A stretch of DNA of 61,002 bases. Source: a virus (Duplodnaviria; Caudoviricetes). Where the stretch lies: positions 1 through 61,002 of IMG/VR virus record IMGVR_UViG_3300010396_000049. One strand, given 5' to 3'. Each line of letters begins with the position of its first letter. Position 1 is the stretch's first letter. A model generated the notes under the pieces. The model worked only from the letters and a program-made list of their open reading frames with translations, had not been told where the DNA came from and made no database searches. Positions 3,484-61,002 of this stretch are shown here, piece by piece. The position numbers and the translations under genes were made by a program.

Positions 3484-4418
3484 AAGCTGCTACCATACCG
3501 TTCGTTGAAGTTTCCGTGCCGGAAGAGCTGGTGAACTATGCATTGACAGAAACGAAGGTGTGTGGGCAATACCTAACCACAAGAAAAAAAGGGAACCGGA
3601 CGCATCCTTACATGAAGGTGCTAGGGTTATACCTTCTTTTAAAAGCCGAGAGCCCTGGCTCCGGATTGATCCAAAACTATGTAAAACAAATTCCGGCGTT
3701 GTGCGCCAACTTCTCTCTTTCGCGGCGATCGTTCTACTACCTTCTTGGTGCGCTTGAGCGAATGAAGCTGATAACGAAAGAAGATGGCAATCTCCGGATC
3801 GCCAGTTGGCAGCAACTCGGAAAAACACTCAATATTTCAACAAAAGGAAAAACCAAAATACAATTCAATTATGATGGTAAACAAAAAATTCATTGGTGGT
3901 TTGCCGCCTTAGATATTAAAGGCAACCAGGAAACCCAGCAGTATATGATCTGGAAAAAAGTGAACAAACATTCGGAAGCAAAAAATGAACTACTAACGGC
4001 AATGCGTAAACGCGGTTTTGATGATAGCAAAATCAACAACCCGGAATATTTTTCCGGCCGCTTATTCGAGCTGTATGTAGAAGATTTCCGCACCGGCACA
4101 GAAGTCCACGACATCCTCATACATATACGGTCGGATACCAACAGGAGCGTAAAAAAATTAGCGTATGACTGGTGCATTAGCTCGCAGTTGACGAGCTATT
4201 GGAAAAAGAAAATGCGCCAGCAGCAGATCATAGATGTGGTAAAAATGCAGGTAGTGAGCGAGTGGACGCGCGGTACCAATGAGTGCCATAAGAACAAATT
4301 TTGCCATGTTATTTGGAACGATAAACTAAAAGAAAGAGTATGGTTTTTATGCGATCAGATAAGCGTACTGATGCCCTGGAAGTGGCAGGAATTTTTGGAA
4401 AATTTAAAGGCCGCGTAG
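3477..4418 (+). CDS. Hypothetical DNA-binding protein, candidate replication initiator
   Basis: wHTH-like segment (LSRRSFYYLLGALERMKLI); followed by a DnaA-box-rich intergenic region; function inferred. Confidence 0.5.
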   Translation: MLEAATIPFVEVSVPEELVNYALTETKVCGQYLTTRKKGNRTHPYMKVLGLYLLLKAESPGSGLIQNYVKQIPALCANFSLSRRSFYYLLGALERMKLITKEDGNLRIASWQQLGKTLNISTKGKTKIQFNYDGKQKIHWWFAALDIKGNQETQQYMIWKKVNKHSEAKNELLTAMRKRGFDDSKINNPEYFSGRLFELYVEDFRTGTEVHDILIHIRSDTNRSVKKLAYDWCISSQLTSYWKKKMRQQQIIDVVKMQVVSEWTRGTNECHKNKFCHVIWNDKLKERVWFLCDQISVLMPWKWQEFLENLKAA

Positions 4419-4439
4419 CGCGCCCAACCGCCCAGTGCA

Positions 4440-4606
4440 AAAAATTGTATGAACAGTAAGTGGATAAATGTTGTTAAGAATATTTTACATACTCAGCATA
4501 CTTAACATAATACTGTGCATAATATGCATAGTATGTACAGTAGCGGCTTTCAAAAGTTTTCAACATGTGCATTAATCAAACGAATAAAACCCTTAAATGT
4601 GAACAA
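4440..4606. promoter_or_regulatory. AT-rich cluster of DnaA-box-like 9-mers (candidate origin)
   Basis: TGTGCATAA 4514-4522 (fits TTATNCACA), AGTGGATAA 4459, TTTTCAACA 4557, TGTGCATTA 4566, TGTGAACAA 4598. Confidence 0.5.
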
Positions 4607-4608
4607 CT

Positions 4609-4953
4609 ATGGACGAAAAACGAACACCATGCCGGTTTGATATGTTTACCAGGAGAAAAAAGACGGCAACGGCGCCGGTAAAAAATGCGAAAGAAATCTT
4701 TACCTACCGTGGGGACCGGTATTCGAGCGAGCCGGAAAAGATGCTGCAGCTGCTGATCGGGATGGTAAAAAACCACCGGCGCCAATTTGCAGTGATGATG
4801 ATAAGGGATAATAGTAAACCGCCGGGTAACCCGGAACATATCATCCTGAAAATTTTAAATGGAGAACCGAAAATTAACCGGCTGCCGGAATATTCAGAAC
4901 TGATAAAAAATTATTCTCTTCCGGAATATTTGAGTTATGAAATAACCGACTAA
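4609..4953 (+). CDS. Hypothetical protein
   Basis: ORF in operon orientation. Confidence 0.6.
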   Translation: MDEKRTPCRFDMFTRRKKTATAPVKNAKEIFTYRGDRYSSEPEKMLQLLIGMVKNHRRQFAVMMIRDNSKPPGNPEHIILKILNGEPKINRLPEYSELIKNYSLPEYLSYEITD

Positions 4954-5565: not shown

Positions 5566-5864
5566 TGCCCACATTTTTAGGCGAGCCATTTTATCCCTGG
5601 GGATTCCCATTGCCAGCTAAAGAAATAGTTTTTCAATTTAAAGATACGCGTCAATCTGTTGAAGAAATAAAGTTGAAGTATTATGAAGAAAAAACCTCTG
5701 AAAAGGAAGTGGAATTGATAAAAGAATATGTGTTGTATTACATCGGCGCGCCGGTTTTCAAAGTAGAATTTGATAACCAGGCCCAGGAAGAATTTTTTAA
5801 AACACAAATGCCTTTGGACGATATGCTGGATTTCTTGTTAGATGCAGGGATAGATCCTTTGTAA
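5562..5864 (+). CDS. Hypothetical protein
   Basis: ATGA-coupled start at 5562. Confidence 0.6.
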   Translation: MMPTFLGEPFYPWGFPLPAKEIVFQFKDTRQSVEEIKLKYYEEKTSEKEVELIKEYVLYYIGAPVFKVEFDNQAQEEFFKTQMPLDDMLDFLLDAGIDPL

Positions 5865-5865
5865 A

Positions 5866-5900
5866 CCTCACCCCGGCCCTCTCCCGAGGAGAGGGGGAAG
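5866..5900 (+). repeat. REP-like palindrome CCTCACCCCGGCCCTCTCC..GGAGAGGG
   Basis: Related copies at 25331-25367, 30089-30122 and 53891-53923 (reverse). Confidence 0.75.
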
Positions 5901-5933
5901 AAATTAATTTAATAACATTTAAAAATAAAAACG

Positions 5934-6191
5934 ATGACTTCACTTCAAAAAGCAATTGTAAAAAACCTGCTGGAAGGCGCTACCATCGCCAACTGTAAAA
6001 GCAGCGGCTTCAGGCTGCGCACGCACAACGGTTCGGTAATAGCAAAATTTTATTCGCCCACATTTTATTCGCTAAAAAAATATTTGCGAAAAGAAAAGAG
6101 CGGATTGTTTGTGATCAATAAAAATGAAGTGCGCCAGCTTCATGGCAAGTCCTGGATAAAGAAAGAGTATAAAAAATTACAAACCGCGTGA
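5934..6191 (+). CDS. Hypothetical protein
   Basis: ORF with A-rich leader. Confidence 0.6.
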   Translation: MTSLQKAIVKNLLEGATIANCKSSGFRLRTHNGSVIAKFYSPTFYSLKKYLRKEKSGLFVINKNEVRQLHGKSWIKKEYKKLQTA

Positions 6192-6418
6192 GGCTTGAAT
6201 TACATATCAACGGATCTTTTTTTTATGCTGCAGAGATAGAGGAAAAGAAAATGGCACCATTTGCATTTCAATTTAAATCAAGAGTCAGCATGAACCAGGA
6301 AACAGTAAATATGTTGGTAATGGTACTAAAGGCACATTTCTACAAGCAGCTTTCAAACGTAAGTGAATACGAAATATATTTTGTAGCAGAGAGTAGAGGG
6401 GATTCAATTATCATTTAA
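6188..6418 (+). CDS. Hypothetical protein
   Basis: GTGA-coupled ORF. Confidence 0.5.
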   Translation: MRLELHINGSFFYAAEIEEKKMAPFAFQFKSRVSMNQETVNMLVMVLKAHFYKQLSNVSEYEIYFVAESRGDSIII

Positions 6419-6430
6419 AAAATTAAAACC

Positions 6431-6727
6431 ATGTTTTTTCCTAGAACTTTAGATGAAGCCGTAGATTATTTACTACCAAAATTTGACGGCATGGAAAAAT
6501 ATTTCGGGATGAATGAAGAAGAATTTACATCTTTTTGCCACAGCCAAAGAAGTGGTGGAATAGGAATGTCTATTAGAAATGAAATGGGTTTCTGGACCAA
6601 AAACACGCTAATTTATAAGCACATGATTGAAGTGCAGAAATTGGATCATCCGGATGCGATGAGCAAGTTAATTCTAACCATGATTTACAGGAAAAAAGTA
6701 TCTCAAATTAATCAACTTAAAAAATAA
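6431..6727 (+). CDS. DUF6794-like protein
   Basis: PRTLDEA...GMSIRNEMGFW...HPDAMS. Confidence 0.6.
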   Translation: MFFPRTLDEAVDYLLPKFDGMEKYFGMNEEEFTSFCHSQRSGGIGMSIRNEMGFWTKNTLIYKHMIEVQKLDHPDAMSKLILTMIYRKKVSQINQLKK

Positions 6728-7133: not shown

Positions 7134-7700
7134 ATGAAAGTAATATCACTCCTTCAGCCATGGGCAACACTTGTTGTTACCGGCGCTAAAAAAATTGAAA
7201 CTCGTTCCTGGAACACTACTTATAGAGGCCCATTACTCATTCATGCAAGTAAGAAAATGACCAAGGCCCAGAAAGAACTAACACATTCAAAAATGTTTTG
7301 GAGCAAATTAAAACATTTGGAAGAGTTACCACTAGGTTGTATTGTTGGTAAGGCTGACATCATAAAAACTGCTTCAACAGAATATTTCAATTGTTTCTTT
7401 CAAGTAAAAAAATTTAAAGAATTACAGGCTCTTACCGGGCCGGGATCGGTTAATTTAAAAACAAAAGACGAGCAGGCGTTCGGTGATTTTTCAAAAGGAA
7501 GATTTGGCTGGCTTCTTAAAGATCCTGTTTCATTTGAACATCATTATCCTGTAAACGGGAATAGAAGCTTGTGGGATTTCAATGAAAGAATTTGTTTACA
7601 ATGCGGATGCTCAGAAAGCGACGCCTGCGTAGACCCGGACTTTGGTTCGTGCTGGTGGGCGGAAGATTATTTATGCAGCCACTGCACAAAAATAGTTTAA
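7134..7700 (+). CDS. ASCH-domain protein with C-terminal Cys cluster
   Basis: SLLQPWA...GAKKIETRSW...RGPLLIHAS; CLQCGCSESDAC...CWW...LCSHC. Confidence 0.88.
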   Translation: MKVISLLQPWATLVVTGAKKIETRSWNTTYRGPLLIHASKKMTKAQKELTHSKMFWSKLKHLEELPLGCIVGKADIIKTASTEYFNCFFQVKKFKELQALTGPGSVNLKTKDEQAFGDFSKGRFGWLLKDPVSFEHHYPVNGNRSLWDFNERICLQCGCSESDACVDPDFGSCWWAEDYLCSHCTKIV

Positions 7701-7716
7701 AACTAAAAATTAAATC

Positions 7717-7959
7717 ATGAATATTTATTTCCATCCTGATATTGACAAAAAACAAAAAAGGTTTTTGTTTATGGAGCCCAAATATTATGAAATGCTTGCG
7801 ATGATTTCAAATGGGTTTACGGCTAAGGAATGCAGCAAAGAATTAAAAATTTCATCACGCACTATCGAGGCAAGGCTGGTAACGCTGCGGGAAGAATTTG
7901 AATGCAAAAATACGATTCATCTAATTGCAGAATTAGTCAGAAAAGGAATCATAAAATAA
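7717..7959 (+). CDS. LuxR/GerE-type HTH protein
   Basis: GFTAKECSKELKISSRTIEARL...LIAELVRKGII. Confidence 0.8.
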   Translation: MNIYFHPDIDKKQKRFLFMEPKYYEMLAMISNGFTAKECSKELKISSRTIEARLVTLREEFECKNTIHLIAELVRKGIIK

Positions 7960-7970
7960 CACTTTACTTC

Positions 7971-8405
7971 ATGGAATTAAAAAACATCGAAGCCGCCAAC
8001 AAATTATTTGAGCAATTAAAAAACGTGGACGCGGCCATCCACGCAATCAATAAGCTGGCGAAGAAAGTAGTGAATACAGAAACCACTTCTTTACTGAAGC
8101 TAACGGTCATAGATGAACGTAAAAAAAATGAGGAAGCTTCAAAAGCTTCTTTTGATGAAGACGGCTCATTGATCGGCCCCCAGGAAGAAATGTTGAGGAG
8201 GCACCTAACCCAGTCTTTTAGTTTGAATTTTGGAGGATTTTTTGGAGGCTTTGCAAAAGGTAGCCAGGATAAACCTGCGGAAGAAATCTCTCACGATCTC
8301 ACAGAAGGGGAAACGATGGCGCTTTTGCAAATGCTGCTGCATATAAAAAATAAAACACGCAAAGCAATTATTGAACAATTAAAAACCTTGGGATTCCGGG
8401 AATAA
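7971..8405 (+). CDS. Hypothetical protein
   Basis: ORF in operon. Confidence 0.6.
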   Translation: MELKNIEAANKLFEQLKNVDAAIHAINKLAKKVVNTETTSLLKLTVIDERKKNEEASKASFDEDGSLIGPQEEMLRRHLTQSFSLNFGGFFGGFAKGSQDKPAEEISHDLTEGETMALLQMLLHIKNKTRKAIIEQLKTLGFRE

Positions 8406-8536
8406 AAATTTTTAAAAATGAAAACAATATTTTTTATTGATGAAGTGCGCGAGCTGGTTGATAGTTACGCGAATAAAAAAATAACGATTGCAAAACTCAC
8501 AGAAGCCAAATTAGTAAAAACTTAAAATTTAAAATA

Positions 8537-9316
8537 ATGCAAAACGACATCTCATTCTGGAAAAAGTTCATCGAACTTAATTTGAATTATAACATAGATT
8601 ATATGGTTGAAAATTCAATAAAAGATTTCCATTTCAAAGGATTGAACTACATCTGCTTTCAGTTTATGCCACATTTAACTGTGAGGCTTTATGTAATTGA
8701 ACCGTCAGAACCTGTGGACACAAAAAACGTAAACATTCATAATCATTTGTACGATAGTCAAATTTTGGTTTTGACAAGTAGTATTACGAATAATGTTTAT
8801 AAAAAAATAGATGGTGAAGATTACAACCATTACTATTTGACAAGTGCATTATGCCCAACGAATGAAAGTAAAAAAATAAAACTGGATACGCTTGGGAAAT
8901 GCAGCTTAGAGCAAATTAAAAGTATTCAGTTATTTCCAGGCGATTCGCATTTTCAAGACCATACAGAAATTCATAACGTAGAAAACGACACCACAAAATT
9001 GACAGCCTTTATGGTGTTTGAATTTCCAACTGTAAAACACAATTCAATACTATTTAGCAAAAAAGATTACGGGAAAACAATACCAACAGATAATTGCTAT
9101 AATAGATTTTCAGCAACTGAAATTAAAAAACATTGGGAAGAAGTTGAGCCCGGATATTTTGATAGAAACAGAAAATTTATAGACAAAGATGGATGGCTTA
9201 ATGCAAACATGTTCTTTTTTAAAAAACTCACTAAAAAAGGTGAAAAACTTATTGATGTAAAAGATGGCTGTTTTTTACGTCCTAAAACTTTAGGGGTTGT
9301 TTTAAATGGCGCCTAA
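8537..9316 (+). CDS. Cupin-like hypothetical protein (cassette 1 gene)
   Basis: IHNHLYDSQILVL...EIHNV; stop TAA coincides with TAAC of site 1. Confidence 0.55.
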   Translation: MQNDISFWKKFIELNLNYNIDYMVENSIKDFHFKGLNYICFQFMPHLTVRLYVIEPSEPVDTKNVNIHNHLYDSQILVLTSSITNNVYKKIDGEDYNHYYLTSALCPTNESKKIKLDTLGKCSLEQIKSIQLFPGDSHFQDHTEIHNVENDTTKLTAFMVFEFPTVKHNSILFSKKDYGKTIPTDNCYNRFSATEIKKHWEEVEPGYFDRNRKFIDKDGWLNANMFFFKKLTKKGEKLIDVKDGCFLRPKTLGVVLNGA

Positions 9317-9440
9317 CGGACGGGTGTTGCCGATGTACCGGCAATAGCGTTTCGTCAGCTTGGTAAGTTAGATGAAGTTCTTAAATAGTACAACAGTTCA
9401 ATACAATTCCGTCAGCCGGTATATTGGCAACACAATGTTA
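9314..9440 (+). repeat. attC-like cassette site 1
   Basis: TAAC-6nt-GTGTTGCCGATGTACCGGC...GCCGGTATATTGGCAACAC-3nt-GTTA. Confidence 0.85.
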
Positions 9441-9465
9441 CCGGAAGGGCGGCAAATTATAGAAA

Positions 9466-10179
9466 ATGATGAATACAAATAAACCACTTGGCAAAAAGGC
9501 TTACGGCTCAATTCCGCATCTTCCAGGTTCAAGACTTGGACCCGGCGATTATTGCATAAGTGAAGGGCAGGCACGAATAGCAACCGAAAAGCCAAGAGAT
9601 AAGCACGACCTAATAATTGTGCAAGAAAAACTGGACGGTTCAAATGTAGCTATTGCCAAACTGGATGGTAAAATACTTGCCTTAACCAGGGCAGGATATT
9701 TGGCAAATACATCTCCTTTTAAACAGCATCATTTTTTTGCAAAATGGGTAGAAGAAAATAAAGCCAGATTTGTTGCTTTACTGAATGAAAAAGAAAGATT
9801 ATCAGGTGAATGGCTTGCAATGGCGCACGGAACACGTTACGATTTACCACATGAGCCGTTTGTTTGTTTTGATTTAATTACAGGAACCGAAAGAATTATT
9901 TATAAAAACTTTGAAGCAAGAGTAAGGAAACAGGATTTTATTATCCCAAATCTGCTTCACATTGGCGGCAGCTTTTCCATTGAAAGTATGATAAGGGCAA
10001 TTTCAAAAAGTGGACATGGTGCGATTGATGAAGTAGAGGGTGCAATTTGGCGTGTTGAAAGAAAAGAGAAAGTTGATTTTTTATGTAAATATGTTCATCA
10101 TAATAAACAGGATGGAAAATATTTTGAAGAAGTTACAGGTAAAGGTGAGGTTTGGAACTGTGATGTTTCTCGCTGGTAG
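9466..10179 (+). CDS. ATP-dependent RNA ligase-family adenylyltransferase (cassette 2)
   Basis: QEKLDGSN (motif I KxDG), GEW, FVCFD, EGAIWR, CKYV. Confidence 0.82.
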   Translation: MMNTNKPLGKKAYGSIPHLPGSRLGPGDYCISEGQARIATEKPRDKHDLIIVQEKLDGSNVAIAKLDGKILALTRAGYLANTSPFKQHHFFAKWVEENKARFVALLNEKERLSGEWLAMAHGTRYDLPHEPFVCFDLITGTERIIYKNFEARVRKQDFIIPNLLHIGGSFSIESMIRAISKSGHGAIDEVEGAIWRVERKEKVDFLCKYVHHNKQDGKYFEEVTGKGEVWNCDVSRW

Positions 10180-10188
10180 CCTTGCCGG

Positions 10189-10272
10189 TAACGTTGAAGC
10201 ATTGGCGATGGCCGCCAATGCGAACACTGAATAATCACAGACTGTCCGGCGGCTATTGCCAATGCAATGTTA
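10189..10272 (+). repeat. attC-like cassette site 2
   Basis: TAAC-GTTGAA-GCATTGGCGATGGCCGCC...GGCGGCTATTGCCAATGC-AAT-GTTA. Confidence 0.85.
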
Positions 10273-10307
10273 TATGCTGTGTATTTTAATCTTTAAAAAA
10301 TGAAAGA

Positions 10308-10667
10308 ATGGAAGTAAATCAAAGAAACTTAATGGCTGGTAATTACATTGATGTCATGGGAACTTTTCAAATTGTATTAGGTATCGTTTTTCGTGAAGAA
10401 CTCGGTAATTGGTTCATTCAGCACACTGGAAGCGATTCTGAAAATATACCAATACCTTCTGGAATTGAATTTACAGGAAAAGGTATTTATGCGACTAAAG
10501 AATGGAAAAAATGGCTCGGGGTAGAAAAAAGACGTTTCCCGAAACATATAAAGTTTGTGCATGAAATTCAAAACTATTGTCTTTGGCATTTCGGAATTAT
10601 GCTTTCTGAAAATGTAGACTTTGATTTATTGCCTGAAATATGTAACGTTTCGGGGCATAGCATATAA
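10308..10667 (+). CDS. Hypothetical protein (cassette 3), divergent ELRIGN/HQLQN-family member
   Basis: NLMAGNYI...KFVHEIQNY; stop within TAAC of site 3. Confidence 0.6.
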   Translation: MEVNQRNLMAGNYIDVMGTFQIVLGIVFREELGNWFIQHTGSDSENIPIPSGIEFTGKGIYATKEWKKWLGVEKRRFPKHIKFVHEIQNYCLWHFGIMLSENVDFDLLPEICNVSGHSI

Positions 10668-10792
10668 CGTGTTAGGGCTTTGTGCAGTATGGGAAATCAA
10701 GGAACAAAAGTTCAGCTCTTGCACACAGCCAAATTGAAAAACTAAAGTTCAGAATGTGTGCGTCTGCCCATATTGCACAAAACCCCTTGTTA
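10665..10792 (+). repeat. attC-like cassette site 3
   Basis: TAAC-GTGTTA-GGGCTTTGTGCAGTATGGG...CCCATATTGCACAAAACCC-CTT-GTTA. Confidence 0.85.
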
Positions 10793-10850
10793 TCGGTTCG
10801 TGCCGGGCTATTTGAAAAGAATTGTCAAACCAAAAAAGTAAAACTATAAA

Positions 10851-11141
10851 ATGAAAAAATGCTACATAGCCGGGAAGATTGGCGACTTGCCCGAAGCTGA
10901 ATACAAAGCCGCGTTTGAAAAAGCAAAAGAAGAAGTAAAAGCATTGGGCTTTGAGCCTGTAAGCCCTGTTGATTTGCCACATAAGCATGGAAGAAGTTGG
11001 GGCGAATACATGAGGGAGGATTTAACTGAAATGCTTAAATGTGATAGCCTTTATGCTTTAAGAAATTGGCGGCTGTCACCCGGTGCAACGATTGAAATTA
11101 ATACGGCTATGTCTGTCGGATTACACATCATCCATCAATAG
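10851..11141 (+). CDS. DUF4406 / nucleoside deoxyribosyltransferase-like protein (cassette 4)
   Basis: CYIAGKI...F...PVSP...WGEYMREDL..ML.CD...W..SPGATIE. Confidence 0.82.
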   Translation: MKKCYIAGKIGDLPEAEYKAAFEKAKEEVKALGFEPVSPVDLPHKHGRSWGEYMREDLTEMLKCDSLYALRNWRLSPGATIEINTAMSVGLHIIHQ

Positions 11142-11160
11142 GACTGGTAGGCATGACCGA

Positions 11161-11285
11161 TAACGTTTCACGGCTTTCTGATGCGGGGATTCAATGAACG
11201 TCAGCCCACTAACGCACCACAGCCAGTAAACGAACAAATGTTCAGGATTTGCACTTTCGCCACCGTATCAGAAAACCGATTGTTG
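11161..11285 (+). repeat. attC-like cassette site 4
   Basis: TAAC-GTTTCA-CGGCTTTCTGATGCGG...CCGTATCAGAAAACCG-ATT-GTTG. Confidence 0.85.
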
Positions 11286-11334
11286 GCGGTTCGTTTTTTC
11301 CGCTGTGAATTTTAAAGACTATAAAATAAATTAT

Positions 11335-11679
11335 ATGATAAAAGCAAATGAGTTAAGAATTGGGAATTATGTTCAACATGAACCGTACCCGGATGAAAGA
11401 TGGCTGGTTGATATGCGGTTACTTGAATCTATAGACCTCGAATTAGTGGAATGCGTGGGTATTCCTTTAACGACTGAAATATTAGTTAAATGCGGGTTTG
11501 AGTTATTCCCCTGGGGATGGGTAAGCAGAGTAGCAAACAAAAGAAGTGTTCGCATCACAGCGTTTCACTTTTTGTTTGAAAGAGAGGGACAAACGTCTTT
11601 GAAAATAAAATCGTTGCATCAACTTCAAAATTTATATTTCGCTTTAACTGGTGAAGAGTTGGAAGTCTCGTTAAAATGA
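11335..11679 (+). CDS. ELRIGN...HQLQNLYFALTGEEL family phage protein (cassette 5)
   Basis: Terminal motifs shared with 31641-32108. Confidence 0.7.
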   Translation: MIKANELRIGNYVQHEPYPDERWLVDMRLLESIDLELVECVGIPLTTEILVKCGFELFPWGWVSRVANKRSVRITAFHFLFEREGQTSLKIKSLHQLQNLYFALTGEELEVSLK

Positions 11680-11683
11680 CCGC

Positions 11684-11801
11684 CAACGTTGAAGCATTGG
11701 CGTCTGTTGCCGCTTCCTGTTGCTAAATTGAAATACAAATGTTGATTATTTATTCGTCTGCTGAATAGCGAACCTGCGGCAATAGCGCCAATGCAGTGTT
11801 A
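11684..11801 (+). repeat. attC-like cassette site 5
   Basis: CAAC-GTTGAA-GCATTGGCGTCTGTTGCCGC...GCGGCAATAGCGCCAATGC-AGT-GTTA. Confidence 0.85.
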
Positions 11802-11883
11802 CAGGCAGGCGGGCAAAAAAAATAGTTCTTTGAAATTGAAGGGAAAAATATTTTTTTAAAAAAAGTTGAAAAATATTTTGTTG

Positions 11884-11907
11884 GTATCAAAAATGATACT
11901 ATATTTG
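11884..11907 (+). promoter_or_regulatory. Operator palindrome abutting Bacteroidota -7 promoter in cassette 6
   Basis: GTATCA-AAAA-TGATAC immediately before TATATTTG. Confidence 0.65.
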
Positions 11908-11960
11908 TGTAACAAAACAATTAAAGCAGGCGGCAACTGGGTAAATACGGCGAAAAGAAA

Positions 11961-12314
11961 ATGGCACGTCAATTAACTTCAACAGAAAAAAAAGAATTAA
12001 GAAGCTGGGCTAAACACAATAGTCTTAATCTTGATTACAACAAAAAATTAGATTTTGGACACGGATTTTGGCAAGGTGAGGATATTGCTTCATTAAAGGC
12101 GGCTTTATTAGACTTACAAGACGCTTCTGCCCTTAGGCAGAATGCAAGAATTGCCGTTGGTGAAAAATATGTTGCTTATGATGTGGTAGCCCACCTGGGT
12201 AATGAAAACGGTTTAGAATTGATTGGCTATGAAGGCAAAGAGTATTGGATAAATTTCAAAAGCCTTCCTTATGTGAATGGTTATTTGGCAATTCCTAAAT
12301 TACTTTTGAAATAA
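11961..12314 (+). CDS. Hypothetical protein (cassette 6, gene 1)
   Basis: ORF after own promoter. Confidence 0.65.
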   Translation: MARQLTSTEKKELRSWAKHNSLNLDYNKKLDFGHGFWQGEDIASLKAALLDLQDASALRQNARIAVGEKYVAYDVVAHLGNENGLELIGYEGKEYWINFKSLPYVNGYLAIPKLLLK

Positions 12315-12526
12315 TGGACGAAAAAAAATTAAATGAAAGCCGTCAACAAATAGCGGCTTTCATTCAAAATAAACGCAACGAATTAGGCATCTCTCAAGCC
12401 GTATTAGCCGAACAAACCGGAATGGGAATTGCAACAATAAAGCGTTTTGAAAGCGGTAAATATTGGTTAAATATGAAGCAGTATATTTTGCTTCGTGACG
12501 CACTACAACTGCCTACTTCTTTTTAG
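12314..12526 (+). CDS. XRE-family HTH protein (cassette 6, gene 2)
   Basis: KRNELGISQAVLAEQTGMGIATIKRFESG. Confidence 0.88.
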   Translation: MDEKKLNESRQQIAAFIQNKRNELGISQAVLAEQTGMGIATIKRFESGKYWLNMKQYILLRDALQLPTSF

Positions 12527-12629
12527 ATTTTCCCCTCAATTTATTTTATAAAAAATTACAGTGCCTGCAATCGCTGATGGTGGTAGCTTGCCTGTAACGT
12601 ATTCATTAACGAACTTAAACCAATACACA

Positions 12630-12860
12630 ATGTTTTACAGCGAAAATGTGCCGTTGATAGCGGCAAAGCCTGCCCTTGTTGAAGGCAGGTATAAAATCAC
12701 AACCGAACAAAAAGAACGGTTGAAAGAGCTGGAAGAAAAGTTACATATTCCGGCATCGGCTTTAATCCGCATGGCGCTGGATAGTTTTTTGCCAAAAACA
12801 AATAACCAGGGATTTACTGAGAAAGGAATTAAAGCCGGGTACTTAAATGGAAATTATTAA
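12630..12860 (+). CDS. Ribbon-helix-helix-like small DNA-binding protein
   Basis: YKITTEQKERLKEL...PASALIRMALDSFL. Confidence 0.65.
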   Translation: MFYSENVPLIAAKPALVEGRYKITTEQKERLKELEEKLHIPASALIRMALDSFLPKTNNQGFTEKGIKAGYLNGNY

Positions 12861-26583: not shown

Positions 26584-27249
26584 ATGAAGTGCGTAATTCC
26601 TTATAAAGAGAATGGCGGCGTAGAATTAAAATATTGCCTCAGGGGAATAGAGAAGTTTGTTGAGAATCCCGAAATAATAATTATCGGCTCGGAGCCGGCG
26701 TGGATTAAAAATGTAAAAGTTATTTTTTTCCCTAACGGCAGGGCGCTCAGGTTTAAAGAGTGGAATATTTTTAGAAAAATATGCCAGGTAAAAGAAGACT
26801 TCTTATTTTTTAATGATGATCATTTTTTGCTGCAGCCCTTTGATAAAGGCACTTACCATTTTTCCGGAAAGCTTAGTAAACGGATGAAAGACTATGGCAG
26901 CAATGAATACTGGAAAACCATTCAAAACACCATCAACATAATAGGCGATGCTGATAATTATTTCAGGCATGCGCCGATTTTTATCAGGCATGAAATTTTA
27001 GAAAAAATTAAAGAGCTGGATTGGAACGCCTGGTTTGGCTATTGCGTAAAATCGCTCTACTGCCATTATGCAGGCATACAAGGAACCGAATACCCTGATT
27101 TAAAAATTACTGCCAGGCTACCGCTTTCACACCTCAGGGAAGCAACCAAAGGCCGGCAATATTTCTCTACCGGCAATTTTGTTATTAACACCGATATGGT
27201 CACTTTTTTAGAAGAAACTTATCCTCACAAAAGCAAATTTGAAAAATGA
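26584..27249 (+). CDS. Stealth-like / glycosyl(phospho)transferase
   Basis: ELKYCLRGIEKF, PAWI, FLFFNDDHF, HAP. Confidence 0.65.
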   Translation: MKCVIPYKENGGVELKYCLRGIEKFVENPEIIIIGSEPAWIKNVKVIFFPNGRALRFKEWNIFRKICQVKEDFLFFNDDHFLLQPFDKGTYHFSGKLSKRMKDYGSNEYWKTIQNTINIIGDADNYFRHAPIFIRHEILEKIKELDWNAWFGYCVKSLYCHYAGIQGTEYPDLKITARLPLSHLREATKGRQYFSTGNFVINTDMVTFLEETYPHKSKFEK

Positions 27250-27779
27250 TATTGAGTTGCCAGCCATACCGTGAAGACAGAAATTTAGGCAAAGCTTATA
27301 ACGATGCTTTTAAATTAATTGGAGATGATGATTACCTCATCATTACCGATTATGATGTATTGTACCTGCTTCCGGACCAGATAAAACACATAACAGAATA
27401 TTGCAACCGTTTTCCCGATGGGGATTTATTTGTAAGCTGGGCCAATAGGACGTTTGTGCCCAATGCGCAAATTTATAGCGGCAAGCTTGATGAAGAAGCG
27501 GACATAAGAAAACACCTGGCCACAGCTCAGGAGTGTTATAAAAATTTGTACAACGTTACAAGAATAAGAGAAAATATTTCCGGCTTCCTTATGGCTATAC
27601 CAAAAAGAACCTGGAATGAAATTCCTTTTACGGAAGACCTCAAATGCCTGGGTGTAGATACTATTTTTTCACAAAAGCTTTTATCTGCTGATAAAATTAT
27701 TTACCGCATGGACGGCATTTATATCTGGCATACTTACCGCCTGCTAAATGGTGTAAAAAATAAATCTCATTTACTTTAA
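27246..27779 (+). CDS. GT-A fold glycosyltransferase-like protein
   Basis: NLGKAYN, ITDYD (DxD), SGFLM, GVD, GIYIWH. Confidence 0.65.
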   Translation: MILSCQPYREDRNLGKAYNDAFKLIGDDDYLIITDYDVLYLLPDQIKHITEYCNRFPDGDLFVSWANRTFVPNAQIYSGKLDEEADIRKHLATAQECYKNLYNVTRIRENISGFLMAIPKRTWNEIPFTEDLKCLGVDTIFSQKLLSADKIIYRMDGIYIWHTYRLLNGVKNKSHLL

Positions 27780-27790
27780 AAACTAAAATT

Positions 27791-28285
27791 ATGATATTCA
27801 GAAACGACGACGTAAGCTACAAAACAGAAGTAGGGCAGTTTGCAGAAATACAGAAACTTTTTAAGAAAGAAATTATTCTCCACACCATTGCTTTGATATG
27901 CAAAAACATTGAAAAGAACCCGGAATTGATCACGTTTATCAATAATAATAATATTGATGTGCAGATCCACTGTTGGGAACATTACAATTTTATTGAAAAC
28001 AAAAAACAGTTAGCTGCAGACCTGCCCAGGTGTATAAAAACTATTGAAAAACATTTCAATCACAGCCCTTCAATTGTTTACCCGCCCTGGAACCAAAGCG
28101 ACGATGAAGTAGTAAAAATATGTGAGGCAAACGGGCTGCAAATAAGCAAAAAGAAAGTAAGCCTAAGCCAATACATACGATGCGAAGGCGATGTAGAGGA
28201 AGATGTGATCAACTTCCATTCGTGGAGCTATGATGAAATTATTGTTTTGGAAAAGGCATTAAAAATTTATTCTAAAAAAAGATGA
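27791..28285 (+). CDS. Polysaccharide deacetylase (NodB/CE4)-like protein
   Basis: FRNDD, QIHCWEH, PPWN, FHSW. Confidence 0.75.
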   Translation: MIFRNDDVSYKTEVGQFAEIQKLFKKEIILHTIALICKNIEKNPELITFINNNNIDVQIHCWEHYNFIENKKQLAADLPRCIKTIEKHFNHSPSIVYPPWNQSDDEVVKICEANGLQISKKKVSLSQYIRCEGDVEEDVINFHSWSYDEIIVLEKALKIYSKKR

Positions 28286-28767
28286 AGATATCAGACTTTG
28301 CGCCGCGCACCGGAGCGTTAGAATATTATTTATCCGGAAATAATTTAACCGGCATAGAAGTGGGCACCGATGTTGGCGCTCATGCTGAATCATTATTAAC
28401 AAATTGTGATATCCAAAAACTATACCTCGTCGATACCTGGGAAAATGACTATTGCCGGGGATATTGCGAAGGCAGGCTTTCACGCTGGTTTCATAAAATA
28501 GAATTGTTGAAAGGCCGATCGCTTGAGATGCAAAAGAAATTTTTGACAAATACTTTTGATTTTATCTATTTAGACCAGCAACATGATTACCAGTCTGTAA
28601 AATCTGACCTGGTGGGCTGGTGGGAAAAATTGAAAACCGGCGGAATAATGGCATTAAGAAATTACGCCGAATCAAATACAGAACTCAAGAAAGCTGCAGA
28701 TGAATTTTGCATTGATAAAAAATTTAAGGTAGAACGTTACCATGGAGAAATAATAATTTTTAAATGA
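28282..28767 (+). CDS. Class I SAM methyltransferase
   Basis: GIEVGTDVG, VDTW, FDFIYLDQQHDYQSV, LKTGG. Confidence 0.85.
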   Translation: MKISDFAPRTGALEYYLSGNNLTGIEVGTDVGAHAESLLTNCDIQKLYLVDTWENDYCRGYCEGRLSRWFHKIELLKGRSLEMQKKFLTNTFDFIYLDQQHDYQSVKSDLVGWWEKLKTGGIMALRNYAESNTELKKAADEFCIDKKFKVERYHGEIIIFK

Positions 28768-29396
28768 AAGTTTGTTACACCGCCCTATTTGGAAATTATG
28801 AAGAGCTCAAAGAGCCTGCAATAATTACACCCGGTTGGAAATATGTCTGCTATACGGACCAGCCTTTAAAAAGCGATGTATGGGAAATAAAGCAGTTAGA
28901 ATTGCGTAATGGCGCAACACCTCAAAAATTAGCCAGGTGCTACAAAATAAAAGAGTTTGCAGAATGGGAGCAAAGCATTTGGATAGACGCCAGCTTCGTT
29001 ATCAATACTGACCTGAATGCCTGGTGGGAAAAATATTTTAAAAAAGGATTCAGTGCGCCAAAACATCCATTAAGAAATTGCATTTACGATGAAGGAAAGC
29101 ATTGCATGAGAATAAAACGAGGCGCAGAGGGAATAGAAAAGCAATTAACAGAATATAAATCGTTGGGCATCCCGAAGAAAAACGGCCTTATCACCAGCGG
29201 TTTATTGATGCGGGAAAACACGCCAGAGGTAATTGCATTGTGCAAAGAATGGTGGACGGAAATGAGCACGCAAAGCATCCGCGACCAGATTGCCTTTGGA
29301 AAAGCAAGCCTAAATGCAAATTGCGTGTATACATACCCGTGGGATTATAGGGAAAGCAACTATTTTATTTATAAAAAACATTACCATTTAAGATGA
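28764..29396 (+). CDS. DUF616/TOD1-MUCI70-like glycosyltransferase
   Basis: YTALFGNYE, CYTD, SIWIDAS, HPLRNCIYDE, RDQIAF. Confidence 0.8.
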   Translation: MKVCYTALFGNYEELKEPAIITPGWKYVCYTDQPLKSDVWEIKQLELRNGATPQKLARCYKIKEFAEWEQSIWIDASFVINTDLNAWWEKYFKKGFSAPKHPLRNCIYDEGKHCMRIKRGAEGIEKQLTEYKSLGIPKKNGLITSGLLMRENTPEVIALCKEWWTEMSTQSIRDQIAFGKASLNANCVYTYPWDYRESNYFIYKKHYHLR

Positions 29397-29962
29397 TAAC
29401 ACACCACACACAATTACTGAATTCATTAATTGAAAGAAACAATTTGAAATCTTATCTCGAAATTGGCGTGCAAGATCCTGCCAATAATTTTGATAAGATA
29501 AAATGTGAAATGAAACATGGCGTAGATCCGGAAGTGGATGGTTGCCGCATTTCAAAAGTTGGAAGCGACGAATATTTTTCAATAATGCAGGAAGAAATAA
29601 AATTCGATTTAATTTTTATTGATGGCCTTCATCATGAAGCCCAGGTAAAAAGGGACTTTGAAAATTCATTGCGCTGCCTGAATGAAAACGGGTTTATTGT
29701 TTTGCATGATTGCCTGCCAACAAATGAAGCCGGCACCAAAGTTCCGCGTGAAACAAAAGTTTGGTGGGGAGATGTTTACAAATTTGCGATGACGCTAAGA
29801 AGATATGATGGCATTGATTTTAAAACCATTGATATTGATGAAGGTTGCTGCGTGGTTTGGAAAGACGCATCAAAAAAAGGCAGTAATAAAAATATCCGTG
29901 CCAATTGGAATACGTACCAATCAAAAGGCCGAGAGCTTTTGAACGTAGTAAAAACATTATAG
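29393..29962 (+). CDS. Class I SAM methyltransferase
   Basis: YLEIGV, GVDP, FDLIFIDGLH, GFIVLHD. Confidence 0.88.
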   Translation: MITHHTQLLNSLIERNNLKSYLEIGVQDPANNFDKIKCEMKHGVDPEVDGCRISKVGSDEYFSIMQEEIKFDLIFIDGLHHEAQVKRDFENSLRCLNENGFIVLHDCLPTNEAGTKVPRETKVWWGDVYKFAMTLRRYDGIDFKTIDIDEGCCVVWKDASKKGSNKNIRANWNTYQSKGRELLNVVKTL

Positions 29963-59370: not shown

Positions 59371-59583
59371 ATGAAAAACCTGGCAACCATACGAACCATG
59401 AATTCAGCGATGCTGTTAACCCCCGGAGAAAAAAGAATTGTAGATTTGATTTCTACTGCAATCATTAAAAAAACTTTCAAAAATGAAAAAAGGAATCCGC
59501 TATTTGCGCTTCAGCAAAGACAAACAAAGTGTGTTAAGCATAGAGAGGCAAGATCTGGTAACAAGCCTGTGGATGAATCATAA
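59371..59583 (+). CDS. Small protein overlapping integrase start
   Basis: ORF adjacent to integrase; function unknown. Confidence 0.4.
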   Translation: MKNLATIRTMNSAMLLTPGEKRIVDLISTAIIKKTFKNEKRNPLFALQQRQTKCVKHREARSGNKPVDES

Positions 59584-61002
59584 TGGCATAGAAATTTTTG
59601 ACACTTTCATCGACGATGGCTATTCGGCAAAAACTTTTGACCGTCCTGATATGAAAAATTTGATGCTTTTTGTAAAGAAAAATTACCGGGAAATTGATTA
59701 CCTCGTGGTCGCAGAGCTCACGCGCTTCAGCCGTGATTTAGGTGATGCCGTTAACCTGGTGAAGAGCATTCAAAAAGCTTATGATATCAGAATTGTAAGT
59801 GCCAGCCGCGGCGCCATCTACGATTGCAGCGATAGCAATTCATTTTTCATGATGTCTTTGGAATTCCTACTTGGCAATTCCGAAAACCTGAAACGCGAAA
59901 GCGATATTAACGGCGGCATATATACCGCAAAAGCAAAAGAAGGAAGGTACATCCATGGGCAACCTCCATATGGGTATTTTAAAGATGGTACCGGAGCAAC
60001 ATCACGGTTATGCATAGACGAAGAAAAGGCAAAAGTGGTTCGTTACATATTTTCAGCTTACTTAAAAAATGTTCCTTTCCTAATCATCTATGAGGAAGCA
60101 AAAAAAATAGGCTTTCCTCATAAGGGCCACGGAGCCATCCAGAAGATCCTCAGCAACCCGCTTTATTCTGCGCAGCAAATGGTAAAGCCCTGGCGCGAGC
60201 ATCCGGGAGGATTGTTCCCGGCGCTTCATCAACCGATCGTCGACATGATCACCTGGAAAGACGCGCAGGTGAAACTGAAAAATAAAAGCCGCCCGGGAAT
60301 ATCTATCTCTGATGAAATGCCTTTGCGTGGCGTCTTACGCTGCCATTGCTCACAACCGGTAACGGGGGCACCGAGCCGCAACCGTTGGAGCAATTATTAT
60401 TACTATTACAAATGCAAGCACAGCCGCCACGTAAATATTTCCGTAATAAAAGCGCATGAGAAGCTCATCGCAGCCTTAAGTTATATGAGCCTTACGGACA
60501 GGATGGCCTATGCAATTCAAATCAGCAGTGAGCAAAAATTTGATGAACAGGTAAAAGAAAACCGAAAAATACTGGCGAAGAAAAAAACAGAGCTCGAAGA
60601 AATTCACGATCGTATCGAGAGCCTCGAAGAAAAATACCTGGCCAACAAAATCGAATTTGAAACTTACAACAAATGGTTTAGTGAGCTACGCCAGCGCCGC
60701 ACCATCACCAGGGCGCATATAGATCAGTTACAACGTGATGACAGCAGCTTATACCTGCTGATGCAAAACAACATTGAGCAGTTCACCGACCTGCCCTATG
60801 TATATAAAAATTTAGAAACAGCAGCAAAGCAGGAATTTATAAGAATAGTGTTCGACAGCAAACTCTACTGGAGAGACAACATCTATCGAACCCCTTACAT
60901 CATTCCTGCATTTTCACATAATTCATTAATTCTTAAACAAAAAGAGCTACTCGTAATAGAAGAAAAAAAGGGGCTTTCGTTGAAAGTCCCTCAGGGTGGA
61001 GC
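59483..61002 (+). CDS. Large serine recombinase (integrase); continues across the junction to TAG at 188-190 (~528 aa)
   Basis: Hand translation: MKKGIRYLRFSKDKQ (YxRxS catalytic motif), DDGYSAKTFDRP, LTRFSRD, PPYGY recombinase domain, LRGVLRCHC...YYYYKC zinc ribbon, coiled coil; absent from the ORF track because it lacks a stop before the window end. Confidence 0.93.
   Translation, partial: MKKGIRYLRFSKDKQSVLSIERQDLVTSLWMNHNGIEIFDTFIDDGYSAKTFDRPDMKNLMLFVKKNYREIDYLVVAELTRFSRDLGDAVNLVKSIQKAYDIRIVSASRGAIYDCSDSNSFFMMSLEFLLGNSENLKRESDINGGIYTAKAKEGRYIHGQPPYGYFKDGTGATSRLCIDEEKAKVVRYIFSAYLKNVPFLIIYEEAKKIGFPHKGHGAIQKILSNPLYSAQQMVKPWREHPGGLFPALHQPIVDMITWKDAQVKLKNKSRPGISISDEMPLRGVLRCHCSQPVTGAPSRNRWSNYYYYYKCKHSRHVNISVIKAHEKLIAALSYMSLTDRMAYAIQISSEQKFDEQVKENRKILAKKKTELEEIHDRIESLEEKYLANKIEFETYNKWFSELRQRRTITRAHIDQLQRDDSSLYLLMQNNIEQFTDLPYVYKNLETAAKQEFIRIVFDSKLYWRDNIYRTPYIIPAFSHNSLILKQKELLVIEEKKGLSLKVPQGG
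60880..61002 (+). repeat. Exact terminal direct repeat (copy 2)
   Basis: Identical to 1-123. Confidence 0.95.

Follow-up and report, generated by a model that had tools for sequence, protein, structure and literature searches.

The window, which is the whole stretch of 61,002 nucleotides analysed here and a complete phage genome, contains an array of five hairpin sites on the + strand (S1-S5), each located 3' of a small + strand ORF. We conclude, with a probability of roughly 0.7, that S1-S5 are integron-type recombination sites whose G:T wobble pairs mark the coding strand as the strand that recombines, that this situation results from an inverted gene polarity, and that the recombinase is provided in trans by the host. 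That the coding strand has this role is most likely explained by phage cassette genes occupying the opposite strand of sites that are otherwise equivalent. The features of the array are given in Table 1.

Table 1. Sites, boxes and genes of the phage array, in order of their position in the window
Feature	Position	Strand	Description
ORF, 259 aa	8537-9316	+	phrog_8313, undefined function; TAA stop inside the RYYYAAC box of S1
S1	9311-9443	+	GCCTAAC, 6 nt, arms 9324-9342 / 9415-9433, then AAT, GTTACCG; two G:T pairs, G9332:T9425 and G9335:T9422
RNA ligase cassette gene	9466-10179	+	PF09414, E 4e-17; phrog_38169
S2	10186-10275	+	Arms 10199-10216 / 10248-10265; two G:T pairs, G10207:T10257 and G10210:T10254
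Cassette gene, 119 aa	10308-10667	+	No family; TAA stop inside the S3 box
S3	10662-10795	+	Arms 10675-10693 / 10767-10785; one C:A pair, C10678:A10782, and one G:T pair, G10687:T10773
DUF4406 / nucleoside 2-deoxyribosyltransferase-like cassette gene	10851-11141	+	PF14359, E 1e-19; phrog_355
S4	11158-11288	+	Arms 11171-11186 / 11263-11278; one C:A pair, C11174:A11275, and one G:T pair, G11183:T11266
Cassette gene	11305-11679	+	ATG at 11335; phrog_10066, no assigned function
S5	11681-11804	+	Arms 11694-11713 / 11776-11794, bulged T11703 in the 5' arm; one G:T pair, G11706:T11783
Last unit, behind S5	11805-12589	+	AT-rich promoter-like stretch, then two ORFs
ORF of last unit	11961-12314	+	No family
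HTH ORF of last unit	12314-12526	+	
Lone RYYYAAC box GCCTGTAAC	12590-12598	+	Can pair with the S5 tail over a total of 10 nt
Large serine recombinase	59483-61000		phrog_95

All five sites have the same layout: a RYYYAAC box, a spacer of 6 nt, an inner arm of 16-20 nt, a loop, the second inner arm, a spacer of 3 nt and a GTTRRRY box. Hence, inverse core boxes are present at the ends of every site, and in all five the extra spacer bases belong to the crossover-box arm. The array also shows a hallmark of integrons, in that every site has a tail complementary to the head of its downstream neighbour; the complementarity is perfect over 8, 10, 9 and 9 nt in the four pairs of neighbours. The lone box downstream of S5 is the end of the last array unit. 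It is followed by only a short decayed hairpin, extending up to about position 12640, and may itself be a sixth, decayed unit. A possible left boundary, GTTACGCG at about position 8463, was rejected as too weak (compared by eye with the S1 head, it is complementary at 7 of 8 bases). The ORF preceding S1 belongs either to the phage backbone or to the first array unit. We did not find a tyrosine recombinase in the whole 61-kb record (no match to TIGR02249 or PF00589), nor an intI gene with the IntI-specific insertion next to an attI site and an array, as would be present in a complete integron. With five attC-like sites and no integron-integrase, the record thus corresponds to a CALIN. A blastn search in distant mode with the region 7700-12600 gave no match in 50,697 phage records.

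It had been predicted that the sites favour folding of the top (sense) strand, based on nine mismatches in the inner arms. Our pair-by-pair recount gave exactly the same numbers, i.e. seven G:T and two C:A pairs on the top strand; the two C:A pairs occupy arm position 4, one in site 3 and one in site 4, and the one extra T reported for site 5 is the bulged T11703. In the outer arms, a G follows AAC and a T precedes GTT in all five sites, creating a potential G:T pair beside the box. Seven G:T pairs out of nine mismatches corresponds to a two-sided binomial p of 0.18, and the window alone is therefore no proof of a bias. Next to these counts stand the folding energies calculated for both strands. 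With DNA parameters the + strand is favoured for four of the five array sites and for four of the five reconstituted junction sites. Among the array sites, the exception to the predicted preference is S4, the only site of the window whose - strand folds better (-15.6 for the + strand versus -18.4). With RNA parameters the + strand is favoured in three of the five sites. The sense strand being the better-folding one is, as had been proposed, the reverse of the usual relation between gene and site in integrons.

An 18-mer of S2 is present in 37 viral loci and at least 120 genome loci, the latter including isolates of Sediminibacterium, Niastella and Phnomibacter according to their titles, and the family could be surveyed on a larger scale. 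For this we used our own scanner, which scores G:T and A:C pairs alike and requires AAC and GTT. It was preferred over a long variable-gap pattern that matched only one of five genomes, although all five had been reached via 18-mer loci. The 367 unique family sites obtained were oriented by the spacer asymmetry alone. Among them, 284 have more G:T than A:C pairs, 75 have equal numbers and 8 have more A:C. The strand with the G:T pairs is the more stable one in 301 of the 367 sites, with a mean difference of -2.32 kcal/mol (Wilcoxon p 1.6e-38). Per site, the sets from the window, viruses and genomes contain 1.40, 1.72 and 1.53 G:T pairs on one strand versus 0.40, 0.35 and 0.35 on the other. The same picture emerged from a further 146 sites that were new and had been collected with a seed of their own (more G:T in 114, a tie in 27, more A:C in 5; 1.65 versus 0.64 wobble pairs per site). 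The strand bias that the window could only hint at is thus clear in the 367 sites and was repeated in the 146 new ones. Because the seeds of both sets were exact words of 17-18 nt, the sites represent samples of sub-families. Shuffled sequences gave 7 matches to the scanner versus 413 for the real ones. This control replaced one with reversed sequences that was not clean: it gave 109 matches, 74 of them at an asymmetry of +/-3, which we read as real hairpins that are shifted.

The stems of the family covary. At arm position 8, for instance, we found CG 157, GC 129, TA 53 and AT 31 times (99% Watson-Crick), and at most positions all four pair types occur; in total, 6435 of about 7300 aligned stem positions from 388 sites form Watson-Crick pairs. 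As in attC hairpins, structure rather than sequence is conserved, and G:T enrichment coincides with greater stability on the presumed recombining strand. The G:T pairs are concentrated in two places of the stem, at positions 15/16 with 196 and at 18/19 with 311 of about 390 sites, and a bias at such fixed positions points to design and not to drift. A consistent bulge was not found on the arm opposite the crossover box in the 367 sites (41 bulges on the 5' side and 30 on the 3' side).

The same family of sites forms arrays beside an Xer-like tyrosine recombinase gene in Chitinophagaceae genomes, where the relation between gene and G:T strand is reversed. At the genome loci the gene is opposite to the G:T strand in 99 of the 107 decidable cases (8 same, 30 undecidable). 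At the viral loci it is never opposite: in the two sets, 46 and 64 cassettes have the gene on the G:T strand and 35 and 24 are undecidable, so that in the 76 viral loci containing sites each of the 110 cassettes that could be decided is of the same kind. The window itself contributes three cassettes with the gene on the G:T strand and one that is undecidable. A Pfam-based check of the coding strand was in agreement. Of 22 viral ORFs, 21 on the G:T strand and 1 on the opposite one, 13 matched a Pfam family and all 13 lie on the G:T strand; for the genomes, 6 of 22 ORFs matched, all of them on the opposite strand. DNA methyltransferases were encoded by 10 of the 22 ORFs tested from viral arrays, and together with them Mom-like genes are frequent cargo of phage arrays.

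We analysed nine regions of 20 kb surrounding the best integron-integrase-like genes of host genomes. In seven of them, 1-10 sites are located directly 3' of the recombinase gene, and the ORFs in the host regions have the orientation of this gene, against the G:T strand. With TIGR02249 the host recombinase gives a score of 163-193 bits, below the cut-off of 265 and with the match in two stretches, and 18 of its residues face 61 of VchIntIA (PDB 2a3v), which means that the IntI-specific insertion is missing. Its best model is NF040815 (XerA-type), the nearest solved structure is XerA (4a8e), and in databases it is named only 'site-specific integrase' or 'XerD'. In the host genomes, therefore, we found arrays beside a recombinase that is below the TIGR02249 cut-off and without the insertion, rather than complete integrons. 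The insertion has been described as 'not fully conserved' in an integron-like subgroup (statement in PMC8138268).

The original prediction had also suggested that a top-strand substrate, or hairpins acting in the mRNA, would point to a distinct mechanism. This suggestion did not find support: sites of the same family, with the same polarity relative to their own architecture, lie beside a tyrosine recombinase in Chitinophagaceae with the G:T strand antisense to the genes. What differs in the phages is the gene strand. The explanation we propose is that the G:T pairs would act as a built-in strand discriminator. On the wobble strand the stem would be continuous through the two wobble pairs, and on the complement the A.C mismatches at these positions would weaken it. 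The wobble strand would then fold and would be cut by a tyrosine recombinase, presumably supplied in trans by the host, between the A and the C of the 5' RYYYAAC box, as in ordinary integrons. Chitinophagaceae and other Bacteroidota are the likely hosts; their cassette genes, being opposite the wobble strand, have the canonical arrangement, and a phage cassette would consist of the site body, then the gene, then the next RYYYAA. Because the phage genes lie on the wobble strand, their coding strand would be the recombining strand. Tyrosine recombinases cleave with a defined polarity, and it is this polarity, together with the parallel to canonical sites, that suggests which strand is cut.

Evidence on the position of the crossover came from a survey of 525 sites based on global identity of the full site body. 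Identity starts or stops at AAC|G: although the pairs compared are not independent events, 48 have their breakpoint at the RYYYAAC box versus 7 at the GTTRRRY box. The former consist of 27 pairs in which the upstream flank is the same and body and downstream differ, and 21 in which body and downstream are the same and upstream differs. In the remaining 7 pairs only the downstream is the same, body and upstream being different. One comparison (L084 versus L141) reveals a clean one-cassette indel. Cassette boundaries thus fall at the conserved triplet, as they do for attC sites. An earlier version of this test with 40-nt body windows was confounded and has been superseded, since arms conserved throughout the family inflated the class 'body same'; a full-interval test, requiring both flanking sites within the locus, yielded one informative pair. 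Relatives of the window array show the same boundary. L034 and L017, the latter with one site only, share the body, tail and downstream sequence of S5 from 11685, the AAC of its RYYYAAC box, and the homology ends at the lone box 12590-12598 or at most 9 nt away from it. Within the last unit its ends, 11685-11917 and 12529-12598, are kept in both relatives and the genes in between differ. S5 is probably the resident site of the window phage lineage.

These data bear on the strongest of the alternatives, namely that both strands are used with low selectivity, that either box is the crossover point depending on which strand is folded, and that the wobble pairs shift the ratio only. The 7 GTTRRRY-box pairs, out of 55 informative ones, indicate that the other box is sometimes a junction, which a one-strand model does not explain; four of them were inspected base by base and have a sharp boundary at T|GTT. 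Top-strand recombination of canonical sites is also described to occur, at lower frequency, in PMC9892861. Moreover, according to the description in PMC5027507, canonical sites have their extrahelical bases close to L'' and thereby on the other arm than the cleaved box. The sites analysed here do not have that pattern: their asymmetry is a spacer of 6 versus 3 nt with the extra bases on the cleaved-box arm, so that one canonical strand marker points the other way. Pairs with upstream and body the same and downstream different, however, number 0, versus 21 of the mirror type. In another count, body and downstream flank stayed together in 7 of 14 pairs, and body and upstream flank in 0 of 7. In addition, three of the four inspected tail cases involve the last site of an array, and may for that reason represent a special junction with the backbone. 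Complementarity of the boxes was dropped as an indicator of the crossover box, the same pairing being expected under both models. Taken with the weight of the breakpoints, use of both strands seems unlikely to us. That top-strand DNA is the substrate, as had been suggested, is very probably correct, given the breakpoints (48 versus 7) and the G:T enrichment, a feature that PMC5027507 describes for the strand that recombines in canonical attC sites.

It had also been suggested that the hairpins may act in the mRNA. In its strong form, this would mean that they function mainly in phage transcripts, as stabiliser, processing signal or translational insulator, and that G:U pairs were selected in RNA. 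The wobble strand is indeed the transcribed sense strand in the 110 decidable phage cassettes, and for some sites the RNA of the + strand folds far better (S1, -45.6 versus -31.4; S2, -41.9 versus -32.2). RNA parameters favour the + strand in only three of the five window sites, though, and the chromosomal arrays are as polar (1.53 versus 0.35) even if their mRNA has the A.C version. A role in mRNA is therefore not needed to explain the polarity, and as the main function we regard it as quite improbable; an added effect in phages is possible. Nor do the sites resemble intrinsic terminators, as a T-run is absent 3' of all five whole hairpins. Terminator-like sub-stems are present on the + strand at 11274-11291 (S4) and 11698-11712 (S5), and the region contains 7 terminator-like matches versus 3.9 expected. 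A search of Rfam, which has no attC family, gave no relevant match for the sites. The chained complementarity of the boxes and the cassette indels are, finally, marks of DNA recombination.

Somewhat less probable still is a new, phage-encoded recombinase that is unrelated to integrons and acts on the top strand, such as the large serine recombinase of the phage. A tyrosine recombinase is absent not only from the window but also from all five other viral records searched, which would favour this alternative, but in seven of the nine host regions there is a physical linkage of the same sites with the gene of a tyrosine recombinase. The serine recombinase itself resembles a phage integrase of the ordinary type (phrog_95). 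Enzymes of this class recombine double-stranded sites and are not known to require long covarying hairpins. The proposal that the bias is a mutational by-product, for example of deamination of the exposed non-template strand, or due to chance fits the 7 of 9 pairs in the window alone (p 0.18) but hardly survives the finding of G:T pairs at two fixed positions in hundreds of sites with covarying neighbouring pairs, and of a polarity that follows site architecture rather than transcription, whose direction in phages is the reverse of that in genomes.

Our preferred reading, i.e. integron-type sites with an inverted gene polarity, can be compared with known systems. Like attC sites of integrons, S1-S5 and their relatives have RYYYAAC/GTTRRRY ends, an imperfect hairpin conserved in structure over sequence, and a crossover in the conserved AAC/GTT triplet. 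The extent of the wobble bias is also alike: 1.4-1.7 versus 0.35-0.64 G:T pairs per site and 2.32 kcal/mol here, whereas for the 263 canonical sites summarised in PMC5027507 the bottom strand, which is the recombining one, has 1.24 versus 0.39 pairs and an advantage of 2.12 kcal/mol. Besides the asymmetry discussed above, they differ from canonical sites by having two G:T pairs at fixed positions and, in phages, by having the gene on the recombining strand, so that the site precedes its gene. Qi et al. (2023) reported 17 phage CALINs (PMC9892861). As presented there, two arrays of virulent phages were oriented as in bacteria, one Polaribacter phage had divergent sites, and the bottom strands were more recombinogenic with IntI1. 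Those arrays resemble the one described here in consisting of attC-type sites without an integrase and in the frequent methyltransferase cargo; a systematic inversion of gene polarity is not reported in section 3.4 of that paper. The host recombinase adjoins its array and points in the same direction as the cassettes. In this it resembles the group of inverted integron-integrases outlined in PMC4889954, and it differs from IntI by its low TIGR02249 score and the missing insertion. We found no description of this site family or of the inverted polarity in the titles and abstracts found by our searches of open-access literature.

The phage arrays break the part of the rule that relates gene to strand and keep the polarity of the site itself, and wobble polarity makes the recombining strand readable from sequence alone. 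It is possible, although we put this forward tentatively, that phages of Chitinophagaceae and related Bacteroidota maintain a separate pool of cassettes, consisting largely of DNA-modification genes. This pool would use the attC family of an undescribed host integron lineage with an Xer-like integrase devoid of the IntI insertion, and its gene polarity would be inverted, making the coding strand the recombining one. As adaptive reasons for such an inversion we infer that it would keep host and phage cassettes unexpressed in each other's arrays, and that the recombining strand would come to lie where it becomes accessible during transcription or lagging-strand synthesis, which would permit fast shuffling in the phage. 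For high turnover, the orientation effect described in PMC5371416 would predict the recombining strand to be the lagging-strand template. Phage and host pools based on one family of sites may be insulated from each other by their orientation. An Xer-like recombinase may also be able to drive cassette arrays without the insertion that is thought to be essential for recognition of single-stranded attC sites. The frequency of methyltransferase and Mom-like genes in the cargo suggests a role of the phage arrays as anti-restriction toolkits.

The phage sequence is a complete virus record of 61,002 bp with direct terminal repeats and genes for tail, protease and portal proteins and a large serine recombinase. 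Five small plus-strand ORFs are each followed by an attC-like hairpin site (S1 to S5), and all five sites share the same plus-strand layout: a head box (RYYYAAC) is separated by 6 nt from the first arm (16-20 nt) of a hairpin, and the second, complementary arm, beyond the loop, lies 3 nt before a tail box (GTTRRRY). A structural scan weighting G:T and A:C pairs equally detected these five sites as the only ones in the window. Along the array, tails match the heads of the following sites by complementarity over 8, 10, 9 and 9 nt; the tail of the last site, S5, has a 10-nt complement in a lone box, behind which only a decayed hairpin is present. Such chaining of boxes is a hallmark of integron cassettes. 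The genes carried here are of phage type, encoding an RNA ligase, a nucleoside deoxyribosyltransferase-like protein and two proteins without known function.

Coordinates of features in the phage record and in bacterial-genome loci
Sequence	Positions	Feature
Phage record	9311-11804 (+)	Five small ORFs, each followed by a site (S1-S5)
Phage record	9351-9359	Short direct repeat in S1 loop, TTCGTCAGC
Phage record	9409-9418	Short direct repeat in S1 loop, TCCGTCAGCC
Phage record	11685	Head-box AAC of S5
Phage record	11805-11960	AT-rich stretch behind S5
Phage record	11866-11894	Promoter-like site
Phage record	near 11900-11912	TAnnTTTG-like motif
Phage record	12590-12598	Lone box
Phage record	26584-29962	Sugar-/cell-wall-modifying gene run: Stealth CR2-like, polysaccharide deacetylase, two Methyltransf_24, TOD1/MUCI70-like glycosyltransferase
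Phage record	59483-61000, past window end	Large serine recombinase: Resolvase, Recombinase and zinc-ribbon domains; phrog_95 integrase
L183 (G007)	5734-6564; 10104-11051	Array region with two recombinase genes of the same kind
L185; L180	14564-15424 (L185); 3543-4913 (L180)	Cassettes of chromosomal arrays: PF04439 streptomycin adenylyltransferase-family protein (E 4e-74) and Fic protein; environmental Chitinophagaceae-type genomes

The AT-rich stretch behind S5 contains a promoter-like site and, as judged by eye, a TAnnTTTG-like motif, TAnnTTTG being the -7 element of Bacteroidetes. The stretch itself is conserved in two relatives (L017 and L034), and the genes behind it differ. The large serine recombinase is probably the phage's own integrase, and the phage is therefore probably temperate; because the record has direct terminal repeats, this gene may continue at the record start.

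The original prediction that the sites favour folding of the top strand was based on arm mismatches, and its inner-arm count of seven G:T and two C:A mismatches, with one extra T in S5, is exact. In all five sites, moreover, a G follows AAC and a T precedes GTT. Within the window alone, the ratio of 7/9 is not significant (p 0.18). The predicted energetic preference for the plus strand was obtained with DNA parameters for four of the five sites and failed for one, with the same outcome for the reconstituted junction sites; RNA parameters favoured the plus strand in 3/5 sites.

An 18-base word common to S2 and S5 was then used as a seed for the site family. Exact matches were found in 37 viral loci and at least 120 bacterial-genome loci, nearly all from Bacteroidota and mostly from Chitinophagaceae or Chitinophagales. 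With a symmetric scanner, 135 of 178 sources yielded 413 sites in total, and shuffled sequence yielded seven. When sites were oriented by the longer spacer alone, G:T-type pairs outnumbered A:C-type pairs per site in the window (1.40 vs 0.40), the viral set (1.72 vs 0.35) and the genome set (1.53 vs 0.35). Among the 367 unique sites, 284 had a G:T excess, 75 were tied and eight had an A:C excess, so the proposed polarity holds in the larger alignment. The strand whose stem wobbles are G:T (the G:T strand, which is the sense strand in the window) folds more stably in 301/367 sites, with a mean advantage of 2.32 kcal/mol. Counted from AAC, fixed mismatches are G:T at arm positions 15/16 and 18/19 and C:A at 9/10, and neighbouring stem positions covary freely. 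A second set, obtained with a different 17-base word (both sets being seeded by exact words), comprised 146 new sites from 49 new viral loci and gave 1.65 vs 0.64 pairs per site, with 114 sites showing a G:T excess, 27 ties and five an A:C excess.

The family falls into two main length classes. Sites of about 123 nt make up 101/133 viral and 73/229 genome sites, and those of about 188 nt 138/229 genome and 11/133 viral sites; both classes co-occur in one chromosomal array (L185). In the replication viral loci (L188-L237), seven adjacent-site pairs have opposite orientations, perhaps because of inversions or because two arrays face each other.

Nivina et al. 2016 (PMC5027507), who analysed 263 canonical attC sites, proposed that a G:T bias helps the bottom strand to fold and recombine. 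A G:T bias on the recombining strand is already known, as are attC-site clusters in phages (PMC9892861). The family shows the same bias as that canonical strand, located on the phage sense strand. In the family, the extra bases lie on the crossover-box arm, unlike the extrahelical bases of canonical attC sites, which are found on the opposite arm (PMC5027507); this fits an enzyme lacking the insertion of integron integrases (IntI), yet weakens the attC analogy.

Because box complementarity cannot distinguish head from tail, arrays were compared with one another. Among 525 sites, we compared those of different loci two by two where one or both of the 60-nt flanks reached at least 90% identity, counting pairs and not independent events. 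A head-box junction was indicated by 27 pairs sharing only the upstream flank and by 21 sharing the site between the boxes (body) and downstream flank with different upstream flanks; seven sharing the downstream flank alone indicated a tail-box junction, and no pair shared upstream flank and body with different downstream flanks, the other pattern of a tail-box junction. At base level, identity starts or stops at AAC|G, and the difference between loci L084 and L141 is a single clean cassette. In L017 there is only one site, and L034 has an array different from that of the window; from the head-box AAC of S5 onwards, both match the window through the S5 body and tail and into the region downstream. 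The four cassettes of the window are therefore insertions at the head of a site that was already resident. The junction is thus located mostly at the box reading RYYYAAC on the G:T strand. The seven GTTRRRY-box pairs have sharp edges, and the last site of an array is involved in three of the four cases compared base by base; they could arise if the other strand is used on rare occasions, or if the junction with the backbone is a special one.

In chromosomal arrays, the RYYYAAC box closes the site on its 3' side in the gene direction, the canonical R' position. In canonical sites, R' reads 5'-AAC-3' on the bottom strand (PMC5027507), and the joint, written for the top strand, is G|TTRRRY (PMC9892861). 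By this parallel and the cleavage polarity common to tyrosine recombinases, we infer that the G:T strand is the cut strand.

A search of 20 host genomes for an integron integrase revealed no protein above the family cut-off; the best matches were Xer-like tyrosine recombinases, named only "site-specific integrase" or "XerD" in databases. Six of seven recombinases tested scored 163-193 bits with the integron integrase profile TIGR02249 (cut-off 265) and 185-219 bits with the XerA-type model NF040815; that of L185, whose gene is apparently broken, scored 92 and 114 bits. Compared with VchIntIA, the host recombinases have 18 residues in the stretch that takes up 61 in IntI, and therefore lack the IntI-specific insertion. 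In seven of nine 20-kb regions around such genes, one to ten sites lie directly 3' of the gene, with cassette ORFs co-oriented with the recombinase and opposite to the G:T strand. The chromosomal arrangement is thus canonical, with the G:T strand as bottom strand. L183 also contains unusually short sites of 80-82 nt beside 186-nt sites.

In the genome loci, 99 cassette genes lie opposite to the G:T strand, 8 lie on it and 30 are unclear, whereas in viral loci of both sets none is opposite, 110 are on the same strand and 59 are unclear (window: 0, 3 and 1). Pfam matches agree: all 13 from 22 viral cassette ORFs tested lie on the G:T strand, and all six from 22 genome ORFs lie opposite. The viral products include nine N6/N4 methyltransferases, one C5 methyltransferase and two Mom-like proteins, among others, and the genome products include peptidase S41, adenylyltransferase and Fic proteins, among others. 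DNA-modification genes dominate the phage cassettes tested (L012, L018, L019 and L025). Some viral intervals are backbone between two arrays, because two long ones hold a DnaB-like helicase.

The predicted top-strand polarity is real and the main inference drawn from it stands, but the distinct mechanism proposed for it gives way to an inverted arrangement of a known one, with genes on opposite strands in phages and genomes. In the open-access literature searched, we found nothing in print on this site family, on its association with a Xer-like recombinase that lacks the insertion or on gene polarity being systematically inverted in the arrays of phages. Orientation alters excision rates (PMC5371416). 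As to reasons for the inversion, we infer that a sense-strand position would expose the recombining strand during transcription, and also during lagging-strand synthesis if genes and replication run in the same direction. With opposite polarity, host cassettes would stay silent in phage arrays, and phage cassettes in host arrays.
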